NCBI GenBank assembly: GCA_964432595.1
Contig: CAYSOF010000011.1
Location: forward strand, 47,757-111,756
Direction of reading: 5' to 3'
Length of the DNA: 64,000 nucleotides
Origin: an uncultured Candidatus Binatia bacterium
GTDB lineage: Bacteria; Desulfobacterota; Binatia; DP-6
The notes beneath the pieces are model-generated. The model was given only the letters and a program-made list of their open reading frames with translations. It searched no databases and was not told where the DNA came from. How positions within the stretch are numbered: the first letter of the stretch is position 1; the number at the start of each line of letters is the position of its first letter. This document shows positions 28,258 through 64,000 of the stretch, piece by piece. Both the position numbers and the translations under genes were made by a program.

Positions 28258-30942
28258 ATGACGCGTTTTCTCGGCGTGCGTCCGGAGGACGGACGCACGG
28301 TCTGGACGGCGTTCGCGACGCTCATGACGATCGTCGCGGCGCATGCGGTCCTCGAGACCGCCCGCGACGCGCTCTTCCTGGCGGACCTGCCGGCGAGCCG
28401 CCTGCCCTGGGCGTATCTGGGCATCGCGACGCTCGCCTTCGTGACGGTGCGCCTCAGCGCACCGCTGGCGGCGCTCGGTCCGCCCCGCCGCATCCTCGCC
28501 ACCATGCTCGTGCTCGGTGCGGCCGGCACGGCGGCGTTCTGGCGGCTCCTCGGCACGCGCACCCCGACGGAGCTCATGGCGCTCTACGTCTGGACCGGGC
28601 TCCTCGCGTCGGTCGTCGTCACGCAGTTCTGGGTGCAGCTCGGCCATCGCATGGACGTCGGCCAGGCGCGCCGCGCCTACGCCGTCGTCGCCGCGGGCGG
28701 CATGCTCGGCGCGACCGTCGGCTCGCTCGTGGCGACCGCCGTGCTGGCGTTCCATGCGCCCCGGATGCTGCTGCCCGTCGCCGCGTCGATGTTCGCGCTC
28801 GCCGCCTGCCTGCCGCTCTTCGGCCGCGACGGGCCGGCGACGGCGGAGACGACCGCCACCGAGCCGGACGAGCCGCCCCCGACCGTGGCCGCGATCTGGG
28901 CCGACCCGTACCTGAAGCGCCTCCTCCCGCTCGCCGCCCTCGCGCCGATCGTCGCGATGGCGATCGACTTCGTCTTCAAGAGCGTCGTCACGTCCAGCGT
29001 GTCGCGCGACGCGCTCGGGCCGTTCTTCGCACGCTACAACGCGGTCGTGAACGGGCTGGCCCTCGCGTTCCAGCTGCTCGTCGCGCCCCGCCTCCTGCAG
29101 GGCATCGGCGTGGTCCGGAGCCTCTGCCTCTTCCCCGGCACGCTGGCCACCGTCGCCACCGGTGTCGCCCTGACGGGCGGCCTGCCCGCGGCGCTCCTCC
29201 TCCGCGGCACCGACGGCGTCCTCCGCCACTCCCTGCATCGCGCGGCCACCGAGATCCTCTTCGTTCCGCTCGCCGCGGCCACGCGCACCGCGCTGCGCGG
29301 TCTCGCGGAGTCGCTCGGCCAGCGCGGCGGGCAGGTCGTCGGCTCGCTCCTGATACTCGGCGCGATCGCGCTCGGCGCGACGCCGGAGACGCTCGCCGCG
29401 GCGGTGGCGGTGCTGTGCGGGCTGTGGCTGTACGGGTACGTCCGCCTCGAGCACCACTACGTCGACCGCTTCCGGACCCAGCTGCGAACGCTCGCCACCG
29501 CCGACGCGAGCGTCCCCCAGCTGGACGTGCGGTCGCTGGAGACGCTGGTCGTCACGCTGAGCGCGCCGAACGACGCCGAGGTGATCGCCGCGATGGACGT
29601 GCTCGCGAGCTTCGCGCGCACGCACCTCGTCCCGCCGCTCATCCTCTACCACCCGTCGCCCGCCGTCGTGGTGCGCGGGCTCGAGCTGTTCGAGGGCGTG
29701 ACGCGCGAGGACGTCCAGGCGATCCGCCGCCGCCTGCTCGAGCACGACGATCCGGCGGTCCGCGCCGCCGCGCTGCGCGCGCTCGCCGCCACCGGACTCG
29801 ACCAGGCCGCCGTGCGCCGCGTGCTGCGCGCCGATCGCTCGCCGCTCGTTCGATCGACCGCGCTCGTCCTCTGGACGGCGACGCGCGCCGACGGCGACAC
29901 CGATCTCGACGACGCCGTCGCGGACCTGCTCGCCGCGCCCGATCCGGCGTCGCGCCTCGCCGTGGCCGCGACGCTCGCCGAGCTGCCCGGCCGGCTCCTG
30001 CTGCCCGTGGCGCGCGCGTTGCTGCGCGACGGCACGCCGGCGATCCGCCGGCAGGTCGCCCGCGCGCTCGCGACCGATCCGGACCGCGCCCGCATCCCGG
30101 TGCTGACGGCGCTCGTCGCGTCGCCCGAGGCCCGCACCGCGGCGCGCGCGGGCCTCCTCGCCATCGGCACGCCCGCGCTCGAGCATCTCGCCACGGCCCT
30201 GGCGTCGGCCGACACGCCGCCGGCGCTGCGCCGCCACCTGCCGCGGTCGATCAGCCCCTTCGCGTCGCAGCGCGCCGCCGACGTCCTCGTCCACCAGCTC
30301 GACCGCGAGACCGACGGCCGCGTCCTCTACAAGATCTTGCGCGGGCTCGGCCGCATGCGCGCCGACGATCCCGCCCTGCAGGTCGACGGCACGATCCTGA
30401 TGCGTCATGCCCAGCGCACGCTCGAACGGACCATCGAGCTGCTCGCGTATCGCGTCGCCCACCTGCTGCTGCGCGGCACGCCCGCCACCGCCGTGGCGCC
30501 CGACGACCTGCTCGGCCGCCTGCTGGCCGAGAAGGAGCAACGCGCCCTCGAGCGCGCGTTCCGCGTCCTGCAGATCCTGCAGACGCAGGAGGACTTCGCC
30601 ACCATGTACGCCGCGCTGTCGTCCGACGCGCCGGCGACTCGCGCCGGCGCGCGCGAGCTGCTCGGCCACGTGCTCGACGGACCGCTGCGCGACGCGCTGC
30701 TGGCGCTCACCGACTCGCTGCCGCCCGCCGAGCGTCTCGTCGAGGCGCACCGCGCGCTCCCCGTCGCGGTCGCCGACCTGGCGCTCGCGGCGTGGCGCAC
30801 GCCCACGACCGCCGGGGCGGTCGCCGCCGCGCTCGACGGCATCGTCGCCGCGCTCCACGCGGACCGCAGCCAGACGCTCGCGGCCATCGCCCGCCACGAG
30901 CTGCACATCCCCATGACGGAGACGCCTCGTGCCGCCAGCTGA
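28258..30942 (+). CDS. TLC/MFS-like polytopic membrane domain fused to C-terminal HEAT-repeat domain
   Basis: N-terminal ~430 aa multi-TM region resembling the ATP/ADP-translocase (TLC) family. The C-terminal half carries repeated HEAT-like units (DPAVRAAALRALAATG, SPLVRSTALVLW, PASRLAVAATLAEL, TPAIRRQVARALATDP). Confidence 0.75.
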   Translation: MTRFLGVRPEDGRTVWTAFATLMTIVAAHAVLETARDALFLADLPASRLPWAYLGIATLAFVTVRLSAPLAALGPPRRILATMLVLGAAGTAAFWRLLGTRTPTELMALYVWTGLLASVVVTQFWVQLGHRMDVGQARRAYAVVAAGGMLGATVGSLVATAVLAFHAPRMLLPVAASMFALAACLPLFGRDGPATAETTATEPDEPPPTVAAIWADPYLKRLLPLAALAPIVAMAIDFVFKSVVTSSVSRDALGPFFARYNAVVNGLALAFQLLVAPRLLQGIGVVRSLCLFPGTLATVATGVALTGGLPAALLLRGTDGVLRHSLHRAATEILFVPLAAATRTALRGLAESLGQRGGQVVGSLLILGAIALGATPETLAAAVAVLCGLWLYGYVRLEHHYVDRFRTQLRTLATADASVPQLDVRSLETLVVTLSAPNDAEVIAAMDVLASFARTHLVPPLILYHPSPAVVVRGLELFEGVTREDVQAIRRRLLEHDDPAVRAAALRALAATGLDQAAVRRVLRADRSPLVRSTALVLWTATRADGDTDLDDAVADLLAAPDPASRLAVAATLAELPGRLLLPVARALLRDGTPAIRRQVARALATDPDRARIPVLTALVASPEARTAARAGLLAIGTPALEHLATALASADTPPALRRHLPRSISPFASQRAADVLVHQLDRETDGRVLYKILRGLGRMRADDPALQVDGTILMRHAQRTLERTIELLAYRVAHLLLRGTPATAVAPDDLLGRLLAEKEQRALERAFRVLQILQTQEDFATMYAALSSDAPATRAGARELLGHVLDGPLRDALLALTDSLPPAERLVEAHRALPVAVADLALAAWRTPTTAGAVAAALDGIVAALHADRSQTLAAIARHELHIPMTETPRAAS

Positions 30943-31855
30943 CGACGACGCGCCGATCGCACGGCTCCTCGTCATCAAGGCGCTGCCGCTGTTCGCGGAC
31001 GTCGGGGCCGACGAGCTCGCCGTCATCGCGGAGCACACGCACGCGCACAGCTTCGCCCGCGGCGAGACGGTCTTCGGCGGGCCCGACGTGCCCGTCGACA
31101 CGATCCACCTGATCCTCGACGGGCGCATCACCGAGCACCGGAACGGCCGGCCGTTCCGCACCTACGGGCCGCAACGCGTGCTCGGCGGCGTCGACGCGCT
31201 CGCACGCCGGGAGCGCACGGTGCACGCCGTCGCGGACGAGGACACGCGCACGATCGCCATCGATCGCACCGCGCTGCACGACATCCTCGAGGACAACTTC
31301 GGCATCCTCGCGGCCGCCCTGCAGGGCGTCGCCGGGGCCATCCTTCGCCTGCGCAACGTTCTGCCCTCCGCCGGCTTCGAGGGCGCGGCCGGGCACCACG
31401 GCGCGGCACCCGCGTTCGTCGACTCCCTCGCCGCGCGACTCACGCTGCTGCGCGACACGACGTGGCTCGGGCGCGCCGCCGTGCGCACGCTCGGCCAGCT
31501 GGCACGCGAGGCCCAGGTGGCCGCGATCACGGGCGACACGCGCCTCTGGTCCGCGGGCGACGTCGCCGAGCACGCGGTCGTGGTCCTGCGCGGCGCCGTC
31601 GCGTGCGCGCCGGCCGATCGCCGCGCCTTCCGGGTGGGGCCGGGCACGATCCTCGGGATGGAGGAATCCCTGGCGCTCGACCCGCGTTGGTGTGACGCCG
31701 CCGTCGCGGGCGACGCGACGCTCCTGACGCTCACGCGCACGGCGCTGCTCGACGCGCTCGAAGACGACACCGACAGCGCCGTCGCCGTGCTGGCGGGGAT
31801 GGCGAGCGTCGCGAGCGGGCTGCGCGACCTGGTGGCCGAGGAAGGTTCCGCATGA
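30929..31855 (+). CDS. tandem cyclic-nucleotide-binding-domain protein (no HTH)
   Basis: Two CNB-like modules (FARGETVFGGPDVPVDTIHLILDGRI and LWSAGDVAEHAVVVLRGAV...GPGTILGMEE). Overlaps the upstream gene by 14 nt and the downstream gene by 4 nt. Confidence 0.7.
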   Translation: MPPADDDAPIARLLVIKALPLFADVGADELAVIAEHTHAHSFARGETVFGGPDVPVDTIHLILDGRITEHRNGRPFRTYGPQRVLGGVDALARRERTVHAVADEDTRTIAIDRTALHDILEDNFGILAAALQGVAGAILRLRNVLPSAGFEGAAGHHGAAPAFVDSLAARLTLLRDTTWLGRAAVRTLGQLAREAQVAAITGDTRLWSAGDVAEHAVVVLRGAVACAPADRRAFRVGPGTILGMEESLALDPRWCDAAVAGDATLLTLTRTALLDALEDDTDSAVAVLAGMASVASGLRDLVAEEGSA

Positions 31856-36820: not shown

Positions 36821-39544
36821 ATGCGTGCTCTCGCCGTCCTGCTCGCCCTCGCGCTGCCCTCGCTCGCCCTGGCCCAGGCCGCACGGAACGTCGAGCCCGT
36901 CGTCCTGACCGGCGCCGAGGTGCCGGCGTGGTCGCGGCTTCCCGCCCTCACCGTGTGCGCCCCGTATCCCTCGGGCACGACCGGCGGCCGCGACGCGCAC
37001 AACGGCACGACCATCGTCCCGCCCGACGTTCGCACCGGCGTCGCCGTCGACGACGTCGTGGCGTTCCGCTGGACGGGGCTCGCCTGGGTCGAGATCCGGG
37101 TGCAGGTCGACGAACGCTTCGACTACTGCCTGTCGAACCCGCCGTCGGACTTCGCGCTGTACTCCGGCACGGACAAGGAGCTCACGTACGCGTGGGACGT
37201 CGAGAGCTGGAAGAAGACCGACGGCCAGTGCGTCGCCGCCTATCCGCCCGGCGCCGCGCCGACGCCGGATCCCGTCGCCACGCTCGACGACGACGACGAG
37301 ATCGTCTTCATGGCGAGCGACGCGGGCCAGCAGGCGCCGCTGGCGGTGCTGACGCCGCCCGGCACCAGCAACGGCCAGGCGGTCGCCGTGGTCGACCCGT
37401 TCGATCCCACGGCGCCGGCGTTCGTCTACCTCTTCCTGCGCGCCGGCGGCTCGTCGTTCGACGCGTCGAGCGGCTACGTCGACTATACGCGCGATGCGAA
37501 CGCCGACGAGTGGATCGATCGCCACTCGATCGCCGCCGACGACCCCGAGATCCTCGGCGTCAGCAACACCGGCTACGGCCCGAACCTGCCCGGCGACGTC
37601 TGCCGCACGGCCGTGTCGCCCGGCTATCCGGCGACGCCCGACGGTGCGCCGCGCCCGTCGACGGACCGCTTCGTGCGCGACGGCGTCACCGTCGCCACCG
37701 ACGCCTACGAATGGCGCGCGACCGGCCGTTGGATGGTGCGCGGCCTGCGCGTCGCGAAGCCCGGACAGCCGGGCGTCTACGGCCCCGACCTGATCGACCG
37801 CTGGAAGGGGCGCGCGTTCCAGCAGAGCCCCGACTCGACGATCTCGCTCGTCGGCTTCGAGGACGAGCAGGTGAACTGGGAGGCGAACAGCGCGCTCCTC
37901 GGCGAGCGCGTCGGGCCGGTGCGCGCGATCCGCGAGGTGTGGGGCGCCGACTCGGGCACCAACGTCACGAAGACCGAAACCTTCTATCGCGACGCGGTGG
38001 CGTACCGGTACCACGTGCGCGTCCATCCCATCCCGCCCGACGGCCTCTACACGTCGTGGGACTACAACGCCGGCGTCGCCACGCGGTACTACAACCTGCT
38101 GAAGCCGAACGGCGTCGCGATCGACGGCGTCAACGACGACGTCGGCAACGTCGACGGCCTCTTCGGCGTTCCCGCGTTCTTCGATGCGCCCGACCCGACG
38201 TTCAACGTGCCGAGCGCGATCCTCAACTGGGAGCAGATCTCGGGCGCCGGCGACGCCGGCGCGCTCGTCTACATCCTCGAGCTGAAGGGCGCGACGACGC
38301 TCGTGAACCCGGCCGTCGTGCCGTACTACCGCGACGACAAGTGCCTCGACGACGGCACGGGCGACGACCCGGTCGCGCGGCCCTGGCCCGGCGAGGCGTC
38401 GACCGACCCGCGCGTGCAGGCCGGCTATGCCGCCGCGGCGGGCGGCACGCCCTACCCGCAGCTCACGTGCGACCAGAAGCAGGGCGCCTGGGGCGCGCAC
38501 GGCGTCCACTACTTCGTCACCGGCGACAGCGACAACGCCGCGTCGCCCGAGGTGCTGACGGAGATCGACGCGCAGCAGTGGCAGTTCACCGTGCCGACGG
38601 CGGCGCCGGCGAACGTCGCGCAGCCCTACGCGAACACGGTGATCCTGCCGCTCCTGACGGTCGTCACGCCGATCGTCGGCCCGCCGCCGCTGCTCGCGCC
38701 GAGCGCGGCCGACGCGTCGGCCGTCACGCCGCAGGACACGCCGGTCGGCGTGACGCTCGCGGGCGGCGATCTCCTGACCTGCGAGCTCGGCTTCACGATC
38801 GTGACGCCGCCCGCGCACGGCACGCTCGGCGCGATCACGGGCGAGGCATGCACGCTCGGCCTGCCGTCGTCGGACACCGCGCGCGTCACCTACACGCCGG
38901 AGCCGGGCTACGCCGGCAGCGACGCGTTCACGTACCGCACGAACGACGGTCTGTTCGACTCGTCGCCGGCGTCCGTGTTCCTCACCGTCGAGCCGCTGCC
39001 GCCGCCGACCTGCGCGAACGGACCCGTCGTCGGCTGCCGGCGGCCGGTGCGGACGGACAAGGCGACGCTGTCGGTGACGGACCGCTCGCCCGACGTGAAC
39101 GACGAGCTGACGTGGAAGTGGACCGCCGGCGCGGCGACGACGCTCGCCGACTTCGGCACGCCGCTCACGACGACGAGCCATCAGCTGTGCGTCTACGACG
39201 GCGCAGGCGACACGGTCGCTCGCGCGAGCGTGCCGCCGGGCGGGACGTGCGACGGCCGGCCGTGCTGGTCGGCGAAGGGCAGCCGCTATCTGTACCGGAG
39301 CCGCGAACGCGTTCCCGGCGGCGGCAAGCGCAGCACGCTCCGGCTGACGCTCGCGGCCGGCATCGACGGCAAGGCGAAGATTCTCCTGAAGGGCCGCGGC
39401 GTCCACTTCGGGCTCGACGCCCTCCCCTGGGCGCAGCCCGTCGTCGTGCAGCTGAAGAACGGCGAGGGCGAGTGCTGGGAGGCACGGTACGACGCGCCGG
39501 CGCGGCGCAACCAGCCGGGACGGTTCCTCGACAAGGGTGACTGA
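36821..39544 (+). CDS. large secreted protein with Ig/cadherin-like domain and C-terminal recurrent beta-domain
   Basis: Signal peptide MRALAVLLALALPSLALAQA. Ig-like unit (VTYTPEPGYAGSDAFTYRTNDG). C-terminal ~180 aa domain shared with four other proteins in the window. Confidence 0.75.
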   Translation: MRALAVLLALALPSLALAQAARNVEPVVLTGAEVPAWSRLPALTVCAPYPSGTTGGRDAHNGTTIVPPDVRTGVAVDDVVAFRWTGLAWVEIRVQVDERFDYCLSNPPSDFALYSGTDKELTYAWDVESWKKTDGQCVAAYPPGAAPTPDPVATLDDDDEIVFMASDAGQQAPLAVLTPPGTSNGQAVAVVDPFDPTAPAFVYLFLRAGGSSFDASSGYVDYTRDANADEWIDRHSIAADDPEILGVSNTGYGPNLPGDVCRTAVSPGYPATPDGAPRPSTDRFVRDGVTVATDAYEWRATGRWMVRGLRVAKPGQPGVYGPDLIDRWKGRAFQQSPDSTISLVGFEDEQVNWEANSALLGERVGPVRAIREVWGADSGTNVTKTETFYRDAVAYRYHVRVHPIPPDGLYTSWDYNAGVATRYYNLLKPNGVAIDGVNDDVGNVDGLFGVPAFFDAPDPTFNVPSAILNWEQISGAGDAGALVYILELKGATTLVNPAVVPYYRDDKCLDDGTGDDPVARPWPGEASTDPRVQAGYAAAAGGTPYPQLTCDQKQGAWGAHGVHYFVTGDSDNAASPEVLTEIDAQQWQFTVPTAAPANVAQPYANTVILPLLTVVTPIVGPPPLLAPSAADASAVTPQDTPVGVTLAGGDLLTCELGFTIVTPPAHGTLGAITGEACTLGLPSSDTARVTYTPEPGYAGSDAFTYRTNDGLFDSSPASVFLTVEPLPPPTCANGPVVGCRRPVRTDKATLSVTDRSPDVNDELTWKWTAGAATTLADFGTPLTTTSHQLCVYDGAGDTVARASVPPGGTCDGRPCWSAKGSRYLYRSRERVPGGGKRSTLRLTLAAGIDGKAKILLKGRGVHFGLDALPWAQPVVVQLKNGEGECWEARYDAPARRNQPGRFLDKGD

Positions 39545-39612
39545 GCGCATGCCGGGTGCGCCGAGCTTTTGCCGTTGACCTCCGTGGGCGCCGATCCGTA
39601 CAGTCCGGACGC

Positions 39613-42441
39613 ATGTGGCTCGTCCCGCGTGTCCTGGCGGGGTGCGCGCTCCTGCTCCTGTGCGGGTCGCGCGCGACGGCCGCGCTCGTCCTCGACGCGG
39701 CGACGGTCACGGTCCGCCCGGCACGCACCGACTCGTTTCAGCTGAAGGGCCGGCTCGGACCCACGTCGCTCGACGGCGCCACCGCGATCACCGTCGCGCT
39801 GGGACCGTTCTCGATGCAGGTCCCGCTCGACCGGGTGAAGCGGAAGAAGCAGCTCGTCACCTTCCGCGACAAGGCGCCCGGCGCGCGCATCAGCCGGCTG
39901 CGCCTGGACCTGCGGCGCGGCACGTTTCTGGTCGTCGGCGACGAGTGGGTGCTCGCGAACCTGCCGAACCCGCTCGACGTCGCGGTAGGGACGACCGCCG
40001 GCGCGGACTGCCGGACGGTGCGCCTCGAGAACCCGAAGGCGCGACGGCCGCGGAAGCGCGCGCCGTCCGTCGTCCGTCTCGTGCTGGCCAAGAACGGCGA
40101 CGCCGGCGCCTGCGGCACGCTCGCGGCGCCGCGCCCGCGTCCGGTCGCCGTCGTCGCCGGCACACCGACGTCGGTGCTGTTCGAGGTCGACGCGACGACC
40201 GTCGACGCGGGCAGCGTCCAGCTCGTCCGCCTGGACGCGGCCGGCCGCCCGACCGGCGAGCCGGTGTGCACGATGACGTCGGACGGGGCGCGGCTCTCCT
40301 GTACGACGACGATCGCCGAGACGTCGCCGGGCGACGTCACCTTGTTCGTCCGCGGCACCGCGGGGGGCGCGCCGGTGGCGTCGACGGGCTTCGTCCTGCC
40401 GATCGTGCCGCCGCGCAGCGCGGCGGACGCCGCGATGCTCGCGCAGGCCGACGCCGGCGTCGTCCAGGCACGCGACGACGCGTTCGCCCGGCTCGGCGAC
40501 ACGCTCGCCGCGCGCATGGCGCTGCTGCGCGCGCTCGCCGCGGTGCCGGGCATCTCCGGCGCCGCGCTCAGCCCGAACGGCGTCGACGTCGTCTACCGCT
40601 ATGCGAACGGCTGGCTCGGCGGGCTGATCCTGAACCGCGGCCTCGGCACCATCCCCACGCCGTCGGTGGCGACGACCCGTCCGGCCGCCGTGCGCCCGCG
40701 CCCATCGCCCCGCGTCCTCTTCCGCACGTGCGGCGGCGCCGAAGGCGTCTGCTGTCAGCCGAAGGATCGGCGCCAGGCGCTGCTCCGACGCAACGTCCTC
40801 GTCTGGGACGCGGGCTACTTCGGGCCGGGCCGAGACGACGCGCCGGTCGTCGCCGCCAAGTTCGCCGAGTGGGCGTGCCTGGGCCACCAGGTGACGACCG
40901 TCTTCGGCGCCGCCGCGACCGTCGCGTCGGTGAAGCAGTTCACGAGCGCCGCGACGCTCGTGATCTCCACGCACGGCGTGGTGAACAAGTACGGCCGCGT
41001 GATGTTCGCCACCGGCGAGACGATCTCCGACAGCCGCGACGAGCTTCACCACGACGACCTGGTCTTCGGCCTGGTCGGACGGTACCCGATGACCGACACC
41101 GTCGGCATCTACACGGTCTCCGAGGACTTCGTCCGCGTGCTGCCCGGGAGCTTTCCCGAGCGCGCGATCGTCTACGCGAGCTATTGCTACAGCGGCTACG
41201 AGGACGCACTCGCGGCGTACGTGTCGAAGGGCGCGGGCGTCGCGTTCGGCTACGACTGGAAGGTGCACGACACCTACGCGATCGACGTCGCGACGCAGCT
41301 GTTCGACGGCCTGCTCGCCGGCTTCAAGACGGCCGGCGACGCGTACGACGCCGTCGAGCCGAAGCGCGACCCCACTCCGCTGACCGGCTCGCTGCCCGGG
41401 CGCGAGCCCGACACGTGGCTCGAGTTCACGCTGCCCGCCTCCTTCGTCTCGCAAGGCAACCAACGGATCGCCTACGTCGCCCAGCCCGACATCACGCCCG
41501 ACGCGTCGACCGTCGGCCCCGGCGAGTCGGCGACGCTGACCGCGTCCGCAGAGGGCGCGGGGACGTGCCCGCTCGAGTACCACTGGTACACGGAGGGCAC
41601 CGCCGGCGACCTCACGGGCGATACGGGGACGAACGACTTCGAGTCGACGGAGCCGACCGCCACCTACACCGCCCACGAGGAGCCCGACGCCGACGACGAC
41701 GCGGTCGCGGTCGAGCTGTCGTCGCCAGAGAGCGACGGCATCGGCACGAGCTGCGCCGAGGCGAGCGTCGTGACGACGTCGACCAGCAGCACGACGACGA
41801 CGTCGACGACGGTGCCGACCTGCGGTGCGGGCGTCGTGCTGTCGGCCGTCGTCACCGAGGAGATCCTCGCCGGCGCGTTCGCCACGTCGATGGGAACGAA
41901 CGATCAGCATCCGTTCACGTTCCCGCAGACGGCGATCCCCGTCACGCCGACGGCGAACGACGCGAAGCCGTGGAACGAGGTCGCGACGGCCGGCGGTGCC
42001 GCCGCGACCAGTATCGGCGACATCAGCTGGACCGTCGCCCCCTGCGCGATCACCGCGAGCGGCACGTTCGAGGAGTCGAGCATCGGCGGCTCGGCCACCG
42101 CGGCGGCGCAGACGGGACTCGACGCCACGCTGCAGATCGCCTTCGAGGTGTCGCGCGAGGCGCCGTATCACCTCGAGGGCTTCGTCCAGGCCTCCGGCAC
42201 GGCGAAGGACGGCGACAACACGGTCTTCTACGCGCGCTGCTCGGCCAACGGGATCGGCATCGTCGAGGCGAGCCTGCAGAACCCGACCGGCGTCCCCGTC
42301 CCGTTCGAGCGCGACAGCACCGCCTTCCCGGGCGAGGAGCTCATGATAATTTGCGGCGTCAAGCGCGGCGGCGCCAGCGCCGACGGCACCGGCGACGACA
42401 TGGGGACCGTGGACTGGAGCTTCACGTTCACGTTCCAGTGA
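39613..42441 (+). CDS. large secreted protein with N-terminal recurrent beta-domain and clan-CD (caspase/gingipain-like) peptidase-like domain
   Basis: Signal peptide MWLVPRVLAGCALLLLCGSRATA. His/Cys dyad context RNVLVWDAGY...ATLVISTHGVVN...AIVYASYCYSGY. Thr-rich linker. Confidence 0.7.
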   Translation: MWLVPRVLAGCALLLLCGSRATAALVLDAATVTVRPARTDSFQLKGRLGPTSLDGATAITVALGPFSMQVPLDRVKRKKQLVTFRDKAPGARISRLRLDLRRGTFLVVGDEWVLANLPNPLDVAVGTTAGADCRTVRLENPKARRPRKRAPSVVRLVLAKNGDAGACGTLAAPRPRPVAVVAGTPTSVLFEVDATTVDAGSVQLVRLDAAGRPTGEPVCTMTSDGARLSCTTTIAETSPGDVTLFVRGTAGGAPVASTGFVLPIVPPRSAADAAMLAQADAGVVQARDDAFARLGDTLAARMALLRALAAVPGISGAALSPNGVDVVYRYANGWLGGLILNRGLGTIPTPSVATTRPAAVRPRPSPRVLFRTCGGAEGVCCQPKDRRQALLRRNVLVWDAGYFGPGRDDAPVVAAKFAEWACLGHQVTTVFGAAATVASVKQFTSAATLVISTHGVVNKYGRVMFATGETISDSRDELHHDDLVFGLVGRYPMTDTVGIYTVSEDFVRVLPGSFPERAIVYASYCYSGYEDALAAYVSKGAGVAFGYDWKVHDTYAIDVATQLFDGLLAGFKTAGDAYDAVEPKRDPTPLTGSLPGREPDTWLEFTLPASFVSQGNQRIAYVAQPDITPDASTVGPGESATLTASAEGAGTCPLEYHWYTEGTAGDLTGDTGTNDFESTEPTATYTAHEEPDADDDAVAVELSSPESDGIGTSCAEASVVTTSTSSTTTTSTTVPTCGAGVVLSAVVTEEILAGAFATSMGTNDQHPFTFPQTAIPVTPTANDAKPWNEVATAGGAAATSIGDISWTVAPCAITASGTFEESSIGGSATAAAQTGLDATLQIAFEVSREAPYHLEGFVQASGTAKDGDNTVFYARCSANGIGIVEASLQNPTGVPVPFERDSTAFPGEELMIICGVKRGGASADGTGDDMGTVDWSFTFTFQ

Positions 42442-43360: not shown

Positions 43361-43602
43361 CCAGGGCCGCCGTCGCCGTCGGGCTCGTCCTCGTCGTCGG
43401 CGCGCCGGCGCTCGGGCAGCTCGCGCCCGGCTGGCCCGCGGACGACCGTCCCGGCCAGGCTCTCGATCGACAGCGCGGCGAGTCGCTCGACGACTACCAC
43501 CGGCGCCTCGAGCAGTGGCGCGACAGCTCGCACGACGAGCGTCGCGAGATGCTCGATCGCCGCCCCGGCAGTGGGGGCGCCGGCGAGGAGCCCGAGGAGT
43601 AG
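43357..43602 (+). CDS. small secreted protein (81 aa)
   Basis: ATGA overlap with the upstream gene. Signal peptide MTRAAVAVGLVLVVGAPALG. Charged C-terminal half. Confidence 0.45.
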   Translation: MTRAAVAVGLVLVVGAPALGQLAPGWPADDRPGQALDRQRGESLDDYHRRLEQWRDSSHDERREMLDRRPGSGGAGEEPEE

Positions 43603-43607
43603 CGGCC

Positions 43608-44534
43608 ATGTCGCCCGCCACCGTGCCGCTCGCGACCGGGCTCGGCGTGTGGATCGGTGCCGCGCTGTACGTGCACTGGCGGGGCCGCGAGCGCTTGAGC
43701 TTCATGCGGCAGCTCGCCGATCACTCGACGCTGCTCGCGCCCTACAACGCGTTCGTCTACCTCTGCTCGGCCGTCCCCCGGCGTCCGCGGCTGGACGTCG
43801 ACGCGTTCCCCGAGCTGCGCGTGCTGCGGGAGAACTGGCAGACGATCCGCGACGAGGGCCTGGCGCTCCATGCCGCCGGCCACGTCCGCGTGGCGGAGCG
43901 GCACAACGACCTCGCGTTCAACTCGTTCTACAAGCGCGACTGGCGCCGCTTCTATCTGAAGTGGTACGGCCGCCCCCTGCCCTCCGCGACGTCGCTGTGT
44001 CCGCGCACGGTCGAGCTCCTCGCCCACACGCCGAGCGTGCACGCCGCGATGTTCACGATGCTCGCGCCGAAGAGCCACCTCGTGCGGCATCGCGACCCCT
44101 TCGCGGGCTCCGTACGCTTCCATCTCGGCCTGTCGACGCCGAACTCCGACGACTGCCGCATCTTGATCGACGGCGAGCCGTATCACTGGCGTGACGGCGA
44201 AGCGGTGGTCTTCGACGAGACCTACATCCACCGCGCCGAGAACCGTACCGACATGCCGCGGTTGATCCTGTTCTGCGACGTCGAGCGCCCGCTGCGCGGG
44301 CGTCTCGCCACCGCGATCAACCGGTTCGCGATCCATCGGGTGATGGGCATCACGGCGACGGCGAACGTCGACGGCGAGCCCGTGGGCATCGCCAACCGCG
44401 TGTTCGAGCGCGTGTACCACGTGCGCCTGCTCATGAAGCGCCTGCGCAAGCGCAGCCGCCCCCTCTACTACGCGCTGTCCTGGGGCACGAAGCTCGGCGT
44501 GGCGGCCCTGCTCGTCTGGCTCGCGCTCGGCTAG
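43608..44534 (+). CDS. aspartyl/asparaginyl beta-hydroxylase-family 2OG-Fe(II) oxygenase, membrane-anchored (LpxO/OlsC-like)
   Basis: N-terminal TM LATGLGVWIGAALYVHW. AspH-family core (LAPKSHLVRHRDPFAGSVRFHLGL...ETYIHRAEN). Confidence 0.8.
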   Translation: MSPATVPLATGLGVWIGAALYVHWRGRERLSFMRQLADHSTLLAPYNAFVYLCSAVPRRPRLDVDAFPELRVLRENWQTIRDEGLALHAAGHVRVAERHNDLAFNSFYKRDWRRFYLKWYGRPLPSATSLCPRTVELLAHTPSVHAAMFTMLAPKSHLVRHRDPFAGSVRFHLGLSTPNSDDCRILIDGEPYHWRDGEAVVFDETYIHRAENRTDMPRLILFCDVERPLRGRLATAINRFAIHRVMGITATANVDGEPVGIANRVFERVYHVRLLMKRLRKRSRPLYYALSWGTKLGVAALLVWLALG

Positions 44535-44612: not shown

Positions 44613-47600
44613 ATGCGCATCGCGGCTCTGCTCCTGGCCTGCGCCATCGCGACCCACGCGTTCGCCGCCTCCGGCGACCTCGACCCGACGCTGCTCGGCG
44701 GTCGCGTGCAGACCGACTTCGACGGCTGGTTCGACCAGGCGCAGGCGGTCGTGGTGCAGCCCGACGGCGCGATCGTCGCCGCCGGACTCGTGCGGCGGAA
44801 GATCGGCGAGACGGGCGGCGGCATCCCGCTCTTCCGGGCCGAGCTGGGCCTCGTGCGCTACACGGCGACGGGCGCGATCGACGAGACGTTCGGCGACGAG
44901 GGCATCGTCCGCACCGACTTCGGCGAGGACGTCGACGTGCGCGTGCTGTTGCGCGATCCCGCCGACGGCGACCTGATCGCCGTCGGCAACACGCCGTCGT
45001 TCCCGCGGAAGGTCGTCTTCGCGCGTTACGCGGCGAACGGAACAGCCGACACGAGCGTCGGCGGCGGCACCGGACGCGTCGTCACGGCGGTACCGGGCTT
45101 CGCCTACGCGGGCTACGTGCGTGCCGACGGCACGATCATGATCGGCGGCAGCGGCCTCAACTTGAGCGGCTTCGACGCCTTCCTGCTCGCACGCTTCCTG
45201 GCGAACGGCACGCCCGATCCGGCCTTCGACGGCGACGGGTTTCTGATCTCCAGCCAGGGCGCGGCCATCCGCGGCATGTTCGAGGAGCCGGACGGCGACG
45301 TCGTCGTCGGCGGCTGGGTGCAGAGCGGGAGCATGAACGGCTTCCGCAACGTCGTCGTCGCGCGCTTCACCGCTGCCGGCGCCGTCGACAACGGCTTCGG
45401 CCCGAGCGGCACCGGCCGCACGGTGATCGACTACTTCAACTCCGAGGACGAGGGCCGCGCGCTGACGCGGCTCGCCGACGGCCGGCTCGTCGTCGCGGGC
45501 TTCGCGATCCAGGGCTCGGGCGTGAGCGCGCAGAAGCACTTCGCCCTCGCGTGGCTCGACGCGAACGGCGTCCTCGACCCCGCCGTCGCCGGCGGCACCG
45601 GCAAGGTGACGACCGACGTCGTCGGCGACGGCATCGTGCGCAACCTGCTCGTCCAGTCGGCCGGCGTCGTCGCGGTCGGCGAAACCGGGTCGGGCCTCGA
45701 GGTCACGGCGCTCGCGAGCGACGCCCCGGAGCTGACGCTCGTCCGCTACGGCGCGACGGGCTCGATCGACGCGGCGTTCGGCGACGACGGCACGATCACG
45801 CACCGCCTGCGCGCGACGGAGGCGCCGCGCGCCGCCGTGCTCCAACCGGACGAGAAGCCCGTCGTCGTCGGGCGCGTGCGCGAGGACTGGCACGTGCTGC
45901 GGCTGACGCCCACCGGCCAGGCCGACACCACGTTCGGCAGCGGCGGCCGCGTCCTCATCCAGGGGGACGAGTTCCTCCAGGCCTCCGGGGGGGCGCTCCA
46001 GGACGACGGCAAGATCCTCGTCGCGGGCAGCGGCCTCTGCCGCGTCGACTGCGCCGTGTTCCAGTTCCAGCAGCGCATGGCGCTCACCCGGCACCTGCCC
46101 GACGGCCGGCTGGACGCCCAGTTCGGCGAGCTCGGCCTCGCGATGCCGACGTTCACCAGCGCCAGCTCGCAGGTCGCGATGGGCGCGGTCGTCCTGCCCG
46201 ACGACACGATCCTCGCCGGCGGGACGTCGCGCGCGGCGGTGTTCGGCGAGGACGACGACTTCGCGGTCGCGCACCTGGGCGCGGACGGCACGCCCGACGC
46301 CGCGTACGGTACCGGCGGCCTCGCCCTCGCCGACTTCGCGGGCGGCGACGACGTCGCCGTCGGGATGACCGTGCAGCCCGACGGCAAGGCGATCCTCGTC
46401 GGCGAGGTGCCGCAGGGCAACGGCATCGTGTTCGGCGTCGCGCGCTTCACCACCGCCGGCCAACCCGATCCGACCTTCGGCGGCGACGGCACGGTCACGA
46501 CCGACCTGCCGGGAGTCATCGACCGCGCCCAGAGCGTCATCGTCCAACCCGACGGCACGATCGTCGTCGTCGGCACGAGCTACGACGACCAGTCGGGCGT
46601 CGTCGCCCTGGTGCGTTACACGTCGACCGGCACGCCCGATCCCGCGTTCGGGACGAACGGCATCGTGCTGACGCCGGTGACCGCCAACTTCGACGGCGGC
46701 GCCGACGTCATCCGCCGCGGCGACGGGACGCTGGTCGTGTCCGGCTGGGTCGACTTCGGCGGCGACGAGGACTTCCTCCTGCTCCGCTACCTCGAGAACG
46801 GCACGCTCGATGGTTCGTTCGGCACCGGCGGCATCACCCGCACCGACCCGTTCGGCTTCCACCGCACCGACGAGGCGATCACGCTGACGGAGGCGCCCGA
46901 CGGCCGGCTGCTCGTCATCGGCGACACGGTCCACGCGACGGACGACTTCGTCGTCGCGCGCTTCAGCGCGGGCGGCGTCCTCGACACCGCCTTCGGCGCG
47001 GGCGGGCACATGCTCGTCGACCTCTTCTCCACGCCGGACTACGATCCGCGCGCGGCGCTCCTGCAGCCCGACGGCCGGCTCGTCGGCATCGGCACGACCG
47101 ACGGCATGGGCTTCTTCCGCATGGAAATGGCGGGCGGCCCGCAGGCCACGTTCCCGCCGACGCCACCGTCCACGACCACGAGCACGACCGTGCCCGGCGG
47201 CTCGACGACCACCACGACGACGACGGTTCCGGGCGGCACCACCACGACCACCACGACGACGGTCCCCGGCGGCACGACGACGACCACCACGACCCTGCCC
47301 GCCAGCGCCGAGATCTGCGGCAACTGCGTCGACGACGACGGGGACGGCGACGTCGACTACGACGACGCGCAGTGCTGCGCCGCCACCGGCGCGCTGTCGG
47401 TGCGAAAAGCGCAGCTCAAGCCCGGCACGGCGGGCACGAAGCTGAAGCTCACGGCACAGCTCGGCGGCGCGGGCTTCGCGACCGTCGACCCGACCGGCGC
47501 CGATCTCTACGTCCGGCTCGCCGCGGGCGACGGCACGACGCTCCTCTGCACGCGGATTCCCGCGGCGAGCGTGAAACGCAAGAAGAAGGGCTTCCAGTTC

Positions 47601-47831
47601 GCCGACAAGGGCGGCTCCGTGGCGTCGGGAATCTCCAGCGTCAAGGGCAAGCTCCTGAAGACGCAGCAGCTCCAGCTCGTCATCCAGGGGAAGCGCGCGC
47701 GGACGGGCACGCCGGCGGCGGGCGCCATCGGGCTCACGCTGGCGTACGACGCGGGCGCACGCGGACAGTGCGCAAGCGCGGTGCAGACGTTCCGCACGAT
47801 CGGCAAGAACAAGGGCGTCCGCTACCCCTGA
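44613..47831 (+). CDS. delta-60 repeat domain secreted protein
   Basis: Signal peptide MRIAALLLACAIATHAFA. About 14 repeats of ~60 aa with D[PT]xFGxxG cores (DETFGDEGIV, DPAFDGDGFL, DTTFGSGGRV, DPTFGGDGTV...). Poly-Thr linker and C-terminal recurrent domain. Confidence 0.85.
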   Translation: MRIAALLLACAIATHAFAASGDLDPTLLGGRVQTDFDGWFDQAQAVVVQPDGAIVAAGLVRRKIGETGGGIPLFRAELGLVRYTATGAIDETFGDEGIVRTDFGEDVDVRVLLRDPADGDLIAVGNTPSFPRKVVFARYAANGTADTSVGGGTGRVVTAVPGFAYAGYVRADGTIMIGGSGLNLSGFDAFLLARFLANGTPDPAFDGDGFLISSQGAAIRGMFEEPDGDVVVGGWVQSGSMNGFRNVVVARFTAAGAVDNGFGPSGTGRTVIDYFNSEDEGRALTRLADGRLVVAGFAIQGSGVSAQKHFALAWLDANGVLDPAVAGGTGKVTTDVVGDGIVRNLLVQSAGVVAVGETGSGLEVTALASDAPELTLVRYGATGSIDAAFGDDGTITHRLRATEAPRAAVLQPDEKPVVVGRVREDWHVLRLTPTGQADTTFGSGGRVLIQGDEFLQASGGALQDDGKILVAGSGLCRVDCAVFQFQQRMALTRHLPDGRLDAQFGELGLAMPTFTSASSQVAMGAVVLPDDTILAGGTSRAAVFGEDDDFAVAHLGADGTPDAAYGTGGLALADFAGGDDVAVGMTVQPDGKAILVGEVPQGNGIVFGVARFTTAGQPDPTFGGDGTVTTDLPGVIDRAQSVIVQPDGTIVVVGTSYDDQSGVVALVRYTSTGTPDPAFGTNGIVLTPVTANFDGGADVIRRGDGTLVVSGWVDFGGDEDFLLLRYLENGTLDGSFGTGGITRTDPFGFHRTDEAITLTEAPDGRLLVIGDTVHATDDFVVARFSAGGVLDTAFGAGGHMLVDLFSTPDYDPRAALLQPDGRLVGIGTTDGMGFFRMEMAGGPQATFPPTPPSTTTSTTVPGGSTTTTTTTVPGGTTTTTTTTVPGGTTTTTTTLPASAEICGNCVDDDGDGDVDYDDAQCCAATGALSVRKAQLKPGTAGTKLKLTAQLGGAGFATVDPTGADLYVRLAAGDGTTLLCTRIPAASVKRKKKGFQFADKGGSVASGISSVKGKLLKTQQLQLVIQGKRARTGTPAAGAIGLTLAYDAGARGQCASAVQTFRTIGKNKGVRYP
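47187..47294 (+). repeat. imperfect 36-39-bp tandem repeat x3 encoding the TVPGG(S)T7-8 linker
   Basis: Units accgtgcccggcggctcgacgaccaccacgacgacgacg / gttccgggcggcaccaccacgaccaccacgacgacg / gtccccggcggcacgacgacgaccaccacgacc. Confidence 0.6.
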
Positions 47832-50400: not shown

Positions 50401-52380
50401 TCAGTCGCGCCAGCGGCGGCGGCGTCCGGCGGCGGCCAGGATGCGCGCGGGCACCTGCGAGGCGTCCTGGATGATGTGGGCCCCGGACTCCGACACGTTG
50501 ATCGGGTACGGCGACGTGCAGAGCGAGAACGAGGGCGCCGGCGCCGTCCAGTAGTTCGACACGTAGTCGATGTCCCCATAGGGCACGCAGCCGCCGCGAT
50601 CGCTGCCGTACGGCATCTTGAGCCAGCAGAGCGGCAGGGCCGACAGCGTGTCGCACGGCCCGAAGTCGGTGACGCCCGGCGGGTTGTCGAACGACACGTT
50701 CTCTTCGAGCTTCACGTACCGGCTGCCGCCGTCGGTGTAGAACGTGTTGCCGCCCGCTCCGGGACGCTTGCCCGACGCGACGTTGCCGGCGATGCGCTCG
50801 GCGTCGTGCCACCCGCGGCCCTGGCGCGCCTGCGTGTAGATCGCGCCGCCGTCCCACAGCTCCATCAGGAACCGGGTGATGCGGTTGTTGAGGACGCGGT
50901 TGCCGCGGCTGGTCGTCGGCGTCTCCCACATGCCCCACTCGCCGCTGTAGGCGTGCGGCAGCCCCGGAAAGCTGCCGGGATCGTAGAGGCCCCAGCCCCA
51001 GCCGAGCGCGATGCCCGACCACGGCACGTTCGTGATGTCGTTGTGCCGCACGAGCGTGCGCGTCGTGAACCCGACGTAGATGCCGGCGGCGTCGAAGTAC
51101 TCCACGCCGACGCCGTCGATCAGGTTGTTCGTGATGCGGTTGTCGCGGGTGACGTCGGCGCGATGGGTCGGATGATGATCCCGATCGGCGACGCCGCCCA
51201 TCTGGATGGCCGCCGACGAGACGTCGCGGAAGACGTTGCCGACGATGCGGTTGCGCTGCGCGCCCGTGTCGAAGTCGAGCGCGACGCCGCCGAGGTGCTC
51301 GAAGCGGTTGCCCTCGAACACGACCCGTCGCGCGTGGAGGAAGCGCAGGTTGCCCGGCGTCCGCGTGACGTGGCGGGCGTGGCCGATGACGTTCGGCGCA
51401 TGGTCCCAGCCCGTCAGATGGAAGCCGCTCTGGTCGGCGGCGTAGCCGTCGTCGGTGCTCGGTCCGATCCACGTGGCGTGCGCGAACGTGATGCCGCTGA
51501 AGTGGACGCCCGCGATCGGGCGCCGGCGTGTGCCCTGCCCGTCGATCAGCACCTCGAGGACCGGCAGCTCGACGTCGGCACCGGCCATGTCCTGGCCCGG
51601 CAGTGGGATGTAGTACAGCCAGCCCGTCGCGGACGACAGGTACCACTCGCCGGGCTCGTCGAGCAGCTCGTACGCGTTCTCGAAGCGCGTGAGCAGCCGG
51701 AAGGTCCACAGCGAGTCGTCGCCGGGCGGCGCCTGGAAGACGTTCGCGTTCTTCCAGCACGGCTGCTGCATGATCACGAACGGCCCGTCGACGCTCGCGA
51801 CCGGGCACCGCATCATCTTCCACTGCGTCAGCGTGACCGCTTCCACGTCGCGCGGCGTGTGCCACGTGGGCCAGGGATCGAGCACCGCCATGTAGCCCGA
51901 GTCGGTCGGCGCGAAGCCGGCGGGATATGGCGCCGTCTGCGCCCGCACCGCGCGCCGGCCGTCGACCCAGAGCTGCCGGCTGACGACGCCCTCGCCGACC
52001 CAGGCGCGCTGGATGCCCAGCGTGGCGTCGTGCACGGTCCAGCCGCCCACCGGCATGGCGCCGGACACGACGGGCGTCTCTCCCGACGCCGCACGGAAGC
52101 GCAGCGAACGCCCCGCGGACCGGGAGTCCCGGCCGTCGAGGACGAGCGGCTCCGTCAGCCGATGCGTGCCGCCGCGGAGGGTCACGACGACGTCGCGCCG
52201 GCCGTGCGGATCGACGGACCGGGCCTCGTCGCGGGCCCTGGCCAGCGTACGGAACGGGTGGGCACGGCTTCCCGACGCGGCGTCGTCGCCGTCGGGCGAC
52301 ACCCAGACGTGGAGCGGACCCTGCGCGGCGGCCGTCGCCCCCAGCACCATGAGGATCGCGAGCGCGAGCGGCGTCTTCAC
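50401..52380 (-). CDS. secreted right-handed parallel beta-helix (pectate-lyase-like) repeat protein
   Basis: PbH1-type repeats ([64 protein letters not shown]). Signal peptide [23 protein letters not shown] at 52380, or an upstream ATG at 52461 with a Tat-like SFRRRLPIF. Confidence 0.75.
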
Positions 52381-52421
52381 GCCGCGGAATATCGGCAGGC
52401 GACGACGGAAACTGGAGGCGG

Positions 52422-52796
52422 TCAGCCGCGGGGCAGGACCGGCACGCAGTCGGCGCTGCATGCCGCGGACGGGTCGGGGCTGACGGCATGGCGGTGGAGG
52501 ACCGCCCACGTCGGCGTGACGAGCAGCCGCTGGCCGTCCACGACGGCCGTGCCGTCGACGATCAGGCTGTAGTCGTCGGCGGTCCGCACGGGGAAGAGCA
52601 CCGACACGGCGGGACGCGCGCCGGCGTTGCGCGCGCTGCGCGTGCCGACGTCGATCGCCAGCGCGTCGCCGTCCCAGCGGACCGCGCTATGCACCGCGTG
52701 GGGACGCAGATCGTCCGAGACCGTCAGCACGTACGCCCGATCGCCGCGCTCGGCGATCGCGGCGCGCAGTCCGTCGAGCGCGACCGGAATCGACAT
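52422..52796 (-). CDS. pyridoxamine 5'-phosphate oxidase-like (FMN-binding split-barrel) family protein
   Basis: [68 protein letters not shown] matches the PPOX-family N-terminal pattern. Confidence 0.6.
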
Positions 52797-52842
52797 GGGT
52801 CACGGATAGCGCCGCCCACCGCGCGACGCCACCCGGACCGCG

Positions 52843-54396
52843 TCAGCCCACCTCGCCCGCCGCCAGCAGCTCCTGCAGCCGTTCGGCCGTCTTGCCCGTC
52901 AGGTTCGACGCCGCGAGGAGCTCGCGCGCCGCCGCCGGCTTCTGGATGACCAGCTCGGCGAAGGCGACCTTGAGCGCCCGGTACTGCATCGACGGATCCT
53001 GGATCGTGCGGGCGCGATCCCATGCCGCTTCCGGATCCGCGGCGCTCAGCGCGGTTGCGAGCGTGAGCCGGAGCGCGTCGGTCTGCTCCGCCCGCGGCAA
53101 GCCGTCGACCCATCGTGCGGCGCGGGCCGGCTCGTCGGTGGCCCATGCCTCCACGACGGCGCCGGTCGCCACGGCGCGGAGCCGGTCGTCGGCGAGCAAC
53201 CGCGTCGCGGCGGCCGCGTCGGCCGGCGCGCCGTCCGCCCACGTCTCGTACACCGCGGTCACCATCTCGCGGTACGTTCCGTAGTTGTCGGCGACGAACG
53301 CCGCGGCCGCCGCGGGATCGGCCTGGCTCCACCCGGCGAGCGCACCCTTCACGCCGCTCGCGCGCAGGAACTCGCTCGCGAGCGCCTCCGCCCACGCCGT
53401 TCCCGCGGCGCCGTCGCCGAGGGCGAGCTTGCCGGCGATGACACGCGCCGCCTCCGCGAGGAGCTCGACGTCCGCGCTCGTCGGCGGCGGCAGCGTTCCG
53501 GCGTTCGCCAGCTCCTCGTACACGTCGGGCGCGTTCGCCAGCTCGGCCTCCGTCACGTTCATCGCGGCGAGGTCGGCCAGGTACTGCGCGTAGTAGTCCT
53601 GCGCCATCGACAGCTCGGCCGTCGACAGATGTCCCGCCGCCGCGCCGGCGTCGGTCTGCGCCATCGCCATCAGAGCGGCGTTCAGCGTCATGGCGCGCTC
53701 GGTGGGTCCGCGCAGCGTGGACGCCCACGCGACGGCGGCTTCGCCGTCCGAGCGCGCCCAGACCGAACCGACCGTCGCATACGCCTGCATGCGACGGAGC
53801 GGCGACGTCATCGCCTTCGCGACCGCGATGCCGTCCGTCGGGCTCCGCTGCGCCAGCGCGCCCGCGATCTGCACGAGCGCGGTGTCGCGGTAGTCGTCGA
53901 CGAGCCAGGCGTCGGCCCACGCGAGCGCCTCGTCCGCATCCCGGCGCGTCAGGTGCAGCACGAAGCGACGCAGCGGCGCGAGCACCGCCTCGGACGTCGC
54001 CTCCGCCGGCTCGAGCGTCGCGAGCGCGTCGCGCAGCCCGTCGGCGAGTTGGGCGAGCTGGCGCTCTCGTCCGTCGACCTCGAGCAGCATCAGATACTTC
54101 TCGAAGCCGGCCGCGTCCGCCCGGAGCCAGTCCGTCAGGATGGCGGCCAGGACCGCCCGGCGCCGCGACGGGTCGTCGATGCGCAACGCCGCCTCGACGA
54201 GCGCCTGGAAGTCGCGCTCCGTGCCGCCCGTGCTCACCGGCTCGACGTCAGGAGCGTCCGGCGCCGCCGCCACCGATGCCGATGGCGGTGGCGCGACCTG
54301 TTCCGGCGGCGAGGGCGGGCTCGCCGTGAAGTAGACGAGCACGACGACCAACGTCGCTGCCGCGATCGCCACCCACGCGAGCCCGCCCCGCCGCAT
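52843..54396 (-). CDS. hypothetical membrane-anchored Ala-rich protein (517 aa)
   Basis: Start MRRGGLAWVAIAAATLVVVLVYF (TM anchor), ATG at 54396 overlapping the upstream stop (ATGA). The upstream 197 codons of the ORF are Arg/Gly shadow. Confidence 0.55.
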   Translation of the reverse strand: MRRGGLAWVAIAAATLVVVLVYFTASPPSPPEQVAPPPSASVAAAPDAPDVEPVSTGGTERDFQALVEAALRIDDPSRRRAVLAAILTDWLRADAAGFEKYLMLLEVDGRERQLAQLADGLRDALATLEPAEATSEAVLAPLRRFVLHLTRRDADEALAWADAWLVDDYRDTALVQIAGALAQRSPTDGIAVAKAMTSPLRRMQAYATVGSVWARSDGEAAVAWASTLRGPTERAMTLNAALMAMAQTDAGAAAGHLSTAELSMAQDYYAQYLADLAAMNVTEAELANAPDVYEELANAGTLPPPTSADVELLAEAARVIAGKLALGDGAAGTAWAEALASEFLRASGVKGALAGWSQADPAAAAAFVADNYGTYREMVTAVYETWADGAPADAAAATRLLADDRLRAVATGAVVEAWATDEPARAARWVDGLPRAEQTDALRLTLATALSAADPEAAWDRARTIQDPSMQYRALKVAFAELVIQKPAAARELLAASNLTGKTAERLQELLAAGEVG

Positions 54397-56582: not shown

Positions 56583-56962
56583 GTCGTTCTCCTCTCGGCA
56601 GCGGCGTCCCCGAGCGGACGCCGCGTTCGCCGCGACGCAGTGCAAGGCACGCGCCATGAGACGCGCCATGAACGGACGGGTGCCGCCCCGTGCGCATCGC
56701 CGCACCGCCGTGGCGACGGGCAGCGCGCTGCGTAGGACGCGGGCAACGCGCACGTGCGGCGGTCACGATGTGACCGGGTGCGATCCGCGCGCCGTCAGCA
56801 CGCGTCGCATGACGCGCGTCGATCGTGCCGCGCGCGCTGAAAGACGGCCGCTACGGGACCGTGTCGCCGACGGCCGTCCACGGGGTCGGCGACGACGCGG
56901 CGTCGCCGTCGAATCGGCGATCTCGATCCGACGTCAGCGGCGCGAGCGCGCGCCGCCCACCG

Positions 56963-58384: not shown

Positions 58385-58523
58385 CAGGGAACCTCCCATG
58401 GGACCTCCGTCGGAACAGGGCTGGAACGCGGCGGGCGGCGAGACCCTACCATTGCGCCTGGTACCCGGGTCAATGGTGTTTCGCCGGTCTTCACCGCGCC
58501 CGGGTGCGCGCTATCGTCGTCGC

Positions 58524-58976
58524 ATGACCACCACCGCCGAACGCCTCGAGCGCTTCTTCGCCGACTACGAGGCCCGCACCAATCGCGCGCTCGCCGACCC
58601 CGACGACGTCGACCTCGACGCCACCGCCGCGGCGTTCGCCGAGTGGTTCGTGGCGGCCAGCCCCGCCGGCGTCGGTGGCGGGCGCAGCGGGGAGACGCTG
58701 CGCGACGCCATCCCGGTGGGCCTGGATCTCTATCGCCGGATCGGCACCACGGCGATGCAGGTCCGCTCGCTCGAGACGACCGAGATCGACGCGCTGCACG
58801 CGATGTGCCGCGTCGGCTGGGAGGCGCGCTACGAGCGCAAGGACGGCCGCCGCCTCACCACGGCGTTCGACGTCGTCTACCTGCTCCAGCTGCGCGACAC
58901 CGGCCCCGTCATCTTCGCGTGGATCGCCGGCGACGAGCAGGCCCGCCATCGCGAGCTCGGGCTCACGCCGGAGTGA
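58524..58976 (+). CDS. hypothetical protein (150 aa)
   Basis: ATG start, ordinary composition (MTTTAERLERFFADYEARTNRALAD...). The upstream part of the listed ORF is shadow. Confidence 0.45.
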   Translation: MTTTAERLERFFADYEARTNRALADPDDVDLDATAAAFAEWFVAASPAGVGGGRSGETLRDAIPVGLDLYRRIGTTAMQVRSLETTEIDALHAMCRVGWEARYERKDGRRLTTAFDVVYLLQLRDTGPVIFAWIAGDEQARHRELGLTPE

Positions 58977-60099: not shown

Positions 60100-60106
60100 C
60101 GCATCC

Positions 60107-61273: not shown

Positions 61274-61377
61274 GGCGAACGGCGACGGACCTTGCCGCGC
61301 CGACACCCTCGCCGTCAAACGTCGGGCCTGGGGGACCCGCGCGGGCCGCCGTGCTGCGGCGGCCCGCGCCCGGGTGG

Positions 61378-63702: not shown

Positions 63703-64000
63703 AGTCGTGCGGCGTGTTCGCGTCGAGATCGTCCTCGTCGAACTCGGTCTCCCAGCAGACGTCGTTGCCCGCGATCAGCTGTGCGCGGACGGGCATCTGC
63801 CCGAACGGCAGATCGGGACCACGCAGGTTCGCGCCCCGCCCCTTCACCGTGATCGCCGCCTTGCCGTCGACGCCGGCCGTCAGGTTGATGCTGCGGATGC
63901 CGTCGTGGGTCGCGGCGCCGTTCGTGTAGCTGAAGCCCTTGTTGCCTTTCGCCTTCCAGCACGGCTTCGCGCCGCAGGTGCCGCCCTCCGGGATGGCCGC
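63683..64000 (-). CDS. 3' end of a gene encoding the recurrent C-terminal beta-domain (5' part lies outside the window)
   Basis: Minus-strand frame read to the window edge gives ...GGTCGAKPCWKAKGNKGFSYTNGAATHDGIRSINLTAGVDGKAAITVKGRGANLRGPDLPFGQMPVRAQLIAGNDVCWETEFD...KAVGP*. This is clearly homologous to the C-terminus of the 36821-39544 protein. Confidence 0.5.
   Translation of the reverse strand, partial: AAIPEGGTCGAKPCWKAKGNKGFSYTNGAATHDGIRSINLTAGVDGKAAITVKGRGANLRGPDLPFGQMPVRAQLIAGNDVCWETEFDEDDLDANTPHDFKAVGP

Follow-up and report, generated by a model that had tools for sequence, protein, structure and literature searches.

Why should the same small beta-type domain recur on five different secreted proteins within one short stretch of a bacterial genome? 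The stretch in question, a window of 64,000 nucleotides from contig CAYSOF010000011.1 of an uncultured Candidatus Binatia bacterium, had been said in a preliminary description to carry one module at five places, attached to unrelated catalytic or repeat domains. We find that the five copies, here named A to E in their order along the window, belong to an unnamed and ancient superfamily of extracytoplasmic domains, a new family of a familiar sort and not a new kind of system. The function that we favour, with modest confidence, is that of a cationic, non-catalytic module that would bind or anchor acidic secreted proteins to a polyanionic target.

Five copies and their kinship

Checked on open reading frames (ORFs) and their translations, with genes in this window of about 72% guanine plus cytosine (G+C) chosen by third-position G+C content, all five locations given for the module proved correct. 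Copy A (39002-39541, forward strand), which carries a framework of six cysteines, forms the C-terminal 180 residues, 743-922, of the product of ORF 36776/36821-39544 (forward), where a Big_9/cadherin-like domain precedes it, and matches the superfamily hidden Markov model (HMM) with an expectation (E) value of 1e-38. Copy B (about 39679-40116, forward; HMM-aligned core about 39712-40050) stands directly after the signal peptide of the protein encoded at 39613-42441 (forward). Copy C (47373-47828, forward) makes up the last 152 residues of a delta-60/DUF5122 repeat protein (44613-47831, forward), and directly 5' of it lies an acidic, Cys-rich motif, CGNCVDDDGDGDVDYDDAQCC (47311-47372, forward), that is also present in the consensus of its homologues (our alignment A4). 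Copy D (57806-58330, reverse strand) occupies residues 24-198 of a BD-FAE-type esterase (56963-58399, reverse), with the signal peptide before it and, after it, a Thr-rich linker read from the translation, TTTTTSTSTTTTT (estimated at 57746-57805, reverse), that joins the module to the esterase domain; a Thr-rich linker likewise separates module and cargo in protein C. Copy E (63686-64000, reverse) is the second half only of a module, the C-terminal 105 residues of a gene (63683-64000, reverse) cut by the window end. The four full-length carriers, A to D, have an N-terminal signal peptide of typical Sec type, as read from their translations, and searches by sequence and by profile found no sixth copy within the window.

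Pairwise blastp detects only the relationship between copies A and E (E value 1e-18; 91 residues at 43% identity), the remaining pairs all having an E value above 0.05, so the claim of kinship had to be carried to family profiles. We found 14 homologues of module A and 131 of module D (clusters at 90% identity); for module C, a word-indexed search gave none and an exhaustive search gave 193 representatives (50% identity) at an E value of 1e-3 or better. Profiles were run against a local database that combined six-frame translations with every retrieved protein. There, the profile grown from A only reached D at 2.2e-6 while D was not yet included, a D-seeded profile reached copy E at 2.4e-6 and copy A at 4.1e-5, and a bridging ORF in another locus (L011, 6525-8873) matched A (3.6e-9), E (1.7e-9) and D (2.9e-3). 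Comparison of family profiles by hhalign aligned the A and D families at 98% (E value 2.4e-13, 151 columns), copy E with the A family at an E value of 1e-31, and the C family with the A family at 88% (2.8e-6, 114 columns) or, in a second implementation, 81% (1.2e-5), with alignments that span 114-122 columns in register; the C and D families aligned at 52% (1.5e-4). Started from C alone, an iterative search converged on the complete set of A-type (14), D-type (120) and C-type (149) proteins.

Copy B, a divergent C-type module, matched the C-family HMM at an E value of 0.0025 in a database of 4556 sequences and aligned with that family by hhalign at 1.7e-4 over 97 columns in register. Its score of 19.0 bits compares with at most 10.1 bits among 2000 shuffles and 0.5 bits for the reversed sequence; metagenome scans with the N-terminal 242 residues and with the central region of its carrier found no relatives. 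It is hardly credible that the resemblance is a matter of composition or chance for B and C at least, with true kinship limited to A, D and E: blastp is non-significant for each pair that includes B or C, an A/D/E profile alone never retrieves either copy, and the signal of B fades once other families enter the profile, but the in-register alignment of the C and A families and the shuffle and reversal controls for B speak against it, and with it against similarity that is merely compositional. Judged by their profiles, all five copies are homologous, A, D and E firmly, C well and B probably. Reciprocal profile similarity and the same predicted topology unite them in one superfamily, B marginally and by its sequence.

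The idea of one common module, as first put forward, thus survives in the form of a homologous superfamily, although it comprises three subfamilies and not a single uniform module. The motif that had been written for it is an idealised consensus that no copy matches in full, copy A reading SRYLYRS at the position of KGFxYxD and copies B and C being without GKAxIxVKGxG, but shared columns do exist: those common to three or more of the five read P.G.WK.K.KGF.YRD ... ISS..L.L...G...I...GR ... P ... V ... C. The cysteine framework reported for A and E is genuine, its six cysteines being conserved in the A/E family, and the conserved Cys pairs of the module fit an extracytoplasmic location.

Subfamilies, partners and predicted fold

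The three subfamilies differ in where they stand and in what they are joined to. D-type modules are N-terminal in 85 proteins and alone in 35; they follow the signal peptide directly, with a nearly invariant mature start, ADQT.LG, and their downstream partners include BD-FAE esterase, PF04185 phosphoesterase, amidohydrolase and YHYH domains. C-type modules, 149 in all, are mostly C-terminal (113) or alone (30, some of them probably gene fragments), with three N-terminal and three internal cases, so that copy B is an unusual N-terminal member; their partners are delta-60/DUF5122 propellers, DUF6923, LVIVD/transglutaminase and other domains, and the acidic Cys-rich motif precedes the module. The model of an acidic double-disulfide repeat, NF033662, matches this motif before module C at 16 bits (E value 0.0075) and in a homologue (P0137) at 25.5 bits (8e-6), in each protein as a single repeat and below the curated cut-off of 41 bits. 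A-type modules are C-terminal and come after Big_9/cadherin-like, DUF4215, TSP3 or Calx-beta domains. The attachment to unrelated catalytic or repeat domains that had been noticed in the window thus extends to the families, among unrelated hydrolases, propellers and immunoglobulin (Ig)-like or cadherin repeats.

Sixty D-type homologues (P0023-P0041 and others; L018, 9001-9771, forward; L019, 9827-10675, forward) are small, standalone proteins that consist of a signal peptide, the module, a poly-Thr linker and a near-invariant C-terminal tail, LYGSPSRAF.DRV.GLLD. The protein always ends exactly 16 residues past the G of GSPS, and the tail is without a transmembrane segment, has no match among NCBIfam sorting-signal models and does not occur in the 64-kb window; it may serve in docking or recognition. 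The D-type loci come mostly from metagenome-assembled genomes (MAGs) labelled Candidatus Binatia or "uncultured delta proteobacterium", with single matches in MAGs labelled Polyangiaceae, Thermodesulfobacteriota and Deltaproteobacteria.

No named domain lies behind the module, to judge by Pfam-A, NCBIfam and the sequences of the PDB. Neither Pfam nor NCBIfam has a family that extends over it in any of the five window proteins, in 10 sampled homologues or in any of the 137 and 97 members of our alignments A3 and A4; a permissive NCBIfam scan (E values up to 10) and a profile search of PDB sequences gave no match to it, and no account of such a domain turned up in searches of the literature. AlphaFold2, supplied with the family alignments, produced confident models of module D (predicted local distance difference test, pLDDT, 95.8; predicted template modelling score, pTM, 0.90) and of module C (pLDDT 94.3, pTM 0.88), both all-beta and with the same order of elements, namely two long strands, a short helix and then 9-11 strands. 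Foldseek returned nothing at an E value of 1e-3 or better, and the structural neighbours of the two models overlap: gp350 of Epstein-Barr virus (EBV), Fms2, the sandwich domain of beta-mannosidase of glycoside hydrolase family 2 (GH2), archaellins, FlaF/FlaG, OmcA and PmoB. On these models the module, about 150-175 residues long, is predicted to fold into 11-13 strands as an Ig-like beta-sandwich stabilised by disulfides, without a specific solved relative.

Charge and function

What could such a domain contribute to so many different proteins? The property that points to an answer is charge. The isoelectric point (pI) of the module is 9.4 in A, 11.4 in B, 10.5 in C and 8.5 in D, with medians of 9.4, 9.7 and 11.1 in the three subfamilies, 99-100% of whose members carry a net positive charge. 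Outside the module, proteins A, B and C have a pI of 4.3-4.5 and a net charge of -39 to -59, and protein D a pI of 5.5 and a net charge of -5. The split extends to the families: 93 C-type proteins carry +11.2 charges per 100 residues in the module and -5.6 in the rest, and 17 of 18 downstream parts in the D-type loci are net negative. Because this division of charge is kept in three very diverged subfamilies and coincides with terminal placement and linkers, cationic binding or anchoring best explains the module; the charge split and the Thr-rich linkers likewise favour such a role over that of a secretion signal. We propose, as somewhat the better bet, that the basic surface of the module would bind a polyanionic target and so hold acidic secreted enzymes and repeat proteins there. 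The likeliest target would be polymers of the cell's own envelope or matrix, such as lipopolysaccharide or acidic exopolysaccharide, and an anionic surface in the environment is an alternative.

What the analysis shows is kinship, a predicted fold class, fusion to varied partners, signal peptides on the four full-length carriers and the split of charge; binding, the nature of the ligand and localisation are what we infer. Several observations weigh against the proposal. The residues conserved across the superfamily (P.G.W..KGF.Y.D, G..I..G) look structural, as parts of a hairpin and the core, and unlike a shared binding site. Within the window, module D is only weakly basic (net +2) and the partial copy E is acidic, while B is the weakest member, its membership resting on one profile comparison and the shuffle test. 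That each subfamily keeps strictly to the N- or the C-terminus is also compatible with a role in processing or sorting, and the enrichment in Binatia was seen for D-type loci only, which were retrieved with one peptide pattern.

The closest competitor, which we nonetheless consider unlikely, is that the module resembles a carbohydrate-binding module (CBM) and targets enzymes to a carbohydrate or other polymer in the environment instead of to the cell. A catalytic domain joined by a Thr-rich linker to a beta-sandwich is the classic layout of such proteins, and the D and A types have conserved aromatic residues (W77, F85, Y87, Y144, F148). The partners, however, are not mainly glycoside hydrolases (they include esterase, phosphoesterase and amidohydrolase domains, propellers and cadherin-like repeats), and no CBM model of Pfam matches any member of alignments A3 and A4.

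Still less probable is a secretion or sorting domain, recognised by a dedicated export or attachment system as in type IX secretion and perhaps later removed or modified. Such a role would account for the near-constant position of A- and C-type modules at the extreme C-terminus and of D-type modules at the mature N-terminus, for the many unrelated cargoes, and for the mostly Binatia origin of the retrieved D-type loci. It is made less likely because either terminus works within one superfamily, because standalone module proteins exist and because no machinery is encoded near the copies in the window or in locus L018. All carriers already bear Sec signal peptides, and the 60 D-type proteins that hold only module, linker and short tail suggest that the module is itself the payload. 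No model of the C-terminal domain (CTD) of the type IX secretion system (T9SS), of PEP-CTERM or of another sorting signal matches; no secretion or sorting genes adjoin the copies in the window or the standalone D-type homologues of locus L018, which have only unrelated housekeeping and transport genes around them.

We give slightly less weight again, and regard as doubtful, the idea of an inert Ig-like spacer or stabiliser without binding, whose basic charge merely offsets an acidic cargo. The generic Ig-like sandwich fold that is predicted and the structural look of the conserved residues agree with it, but the usual spacers are internal and tandemly repeated, whereas here a single copy is terminal, and standalone module proteins exist. 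A strong positive charge conserved across three diverged subfamilies also argues against it and suggests selection on the surface.

Cationic anchoring could, with a good deal of speculation, be extended to a lineage-specific surface-display system of the Binatia, in which the sandwiches of all three subfamilies would be the units that dock dozens of acidic enzymes and propeller proteins in an array on the outer surface; the abundant standalone D-type proteins would then serve as adaptors, or as anchors of a scaffold, by way of a putative partner of their tail. We hold this to be improbable; it would be an analogue of cohesin-dockerin or T9SS CTD attachment.

Whatever its ligand, the superfamily is defined here with no counterpart in Pfam, NCBIfam or the PDB and with several hundred clusters retrieved, and confident models for two of its three subfamilies would back a new family entry. 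Binatia are uncultured and globally distributed, and the module is probably a mark of much of what they secrete. A basic module joined to an acidic cargo also offers a testable idea of how extracellular hydrolases are kept near cells, although it is not a new biological principle.

Neighbouring genes and known counterparts

The five copies lie within 27 kb of the window, and carriers cluster in related genomes too, mirroring this arrangement. In locus L011 the A-type carrier (6525-8873, forward) adjoins a D-type amidohydrolase (9599-12214, forward), and loci L018 and L019 each have two D-type genes in tandem.

Around the module, the carriers themselves contain regions that fall outside named families. 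Protein A has no match in Pfam, NCBIfam or PDB sequences over its first 640 or so residues (36821-38740, forward). For protein B (39613-42441, forward), a frame at 39615 was rejected as Arg-rich nonsense, the true frame being 39556/39613. Beyond its module this protein has a weak FN3-like stretch (residues 174-257) and, in its central region, His-Gly and Cys motifs (LVISTHG..., ASYCYSG) that recall clan-CD cysteine peptidases; the protein has no match in Pfam, NCBIfam or PDB sequences and no relatives in the metagenome scans.

Just upstream of gene C, at 43515-44534 (forward), lies a gene of the Asp/Asn beta-hydroxylase family (PF05118, E value 4e-48), whose product has apparent hydrophobic segments at both ends, an arrangement that recalls LpxO; the neighbouring gene C encodes an acidic, Cys-rich and Asp-rich motif, a conceivable substrate for hydroxylation. 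The region from 50401 to 62700 is rich in hydrolase genes interspersed with metabolic genes. Besides esterase D, its hydrolases include a protein of GH141/beta-helix type (50401-52509), a 785-residue amidase (54396-56753) and a lipase with a Lipase_C domain (61378-62700). Farther away, 28258-31855 (forward) encodes an 894-residue protein with HEAT repeats and a partial match to TLC ATP/ADP transporters, followed by a protein with two cNMP-binding domains.

Among known systems, type IX CTDs (Por_Secre_tail, TIGR04183/PF18962) are alike in being C-terminal Ig-like beta-sandwiches on many unrelated secreted proteins of one lineage. They differ in that their HMMs do not match the module, in that the D-type subfamily is N-terminal and the module about twice as long, and in belonging to Bacteroidota where the module belongs to Binatia; no T9SS-like genes (PorU/PorV/SprA type) were seen in the 64-kb window or in locus L018. 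The Ig-like sandwiches of archaellins, FlaF/FlaG, EBV gp350, Fms2 and the GH2 beta-mannosidase also stand among the closest known counterparts of the predicted fold. CBMs and "X" modules with Pro/Thr-rich linkers share with our module a single terminal beta-sandwich on unrelated catalytic domains, secreted carriers and shuffling among carriers, and the Thr-rich linker at the join in proteins C and D adds to this likeness; the module is unlike them in the missing Pfam CBM match, in partners that are mostly not glycoside hydrolases and in its strongly positive charge. In charge it recalls the GW modules of Listeria InlB and Ami, which are highly basic accessory modules that keep secreted proteins attached, non-covalently and largely by electrostatics, to an anionic polymer of the cell surface. 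The likeness is one of functional analogy only. GW modules are SH3-like in fold, are found as tandem repeats in Gram-positive bacteria and have lipoteichoic acid as their ligand.
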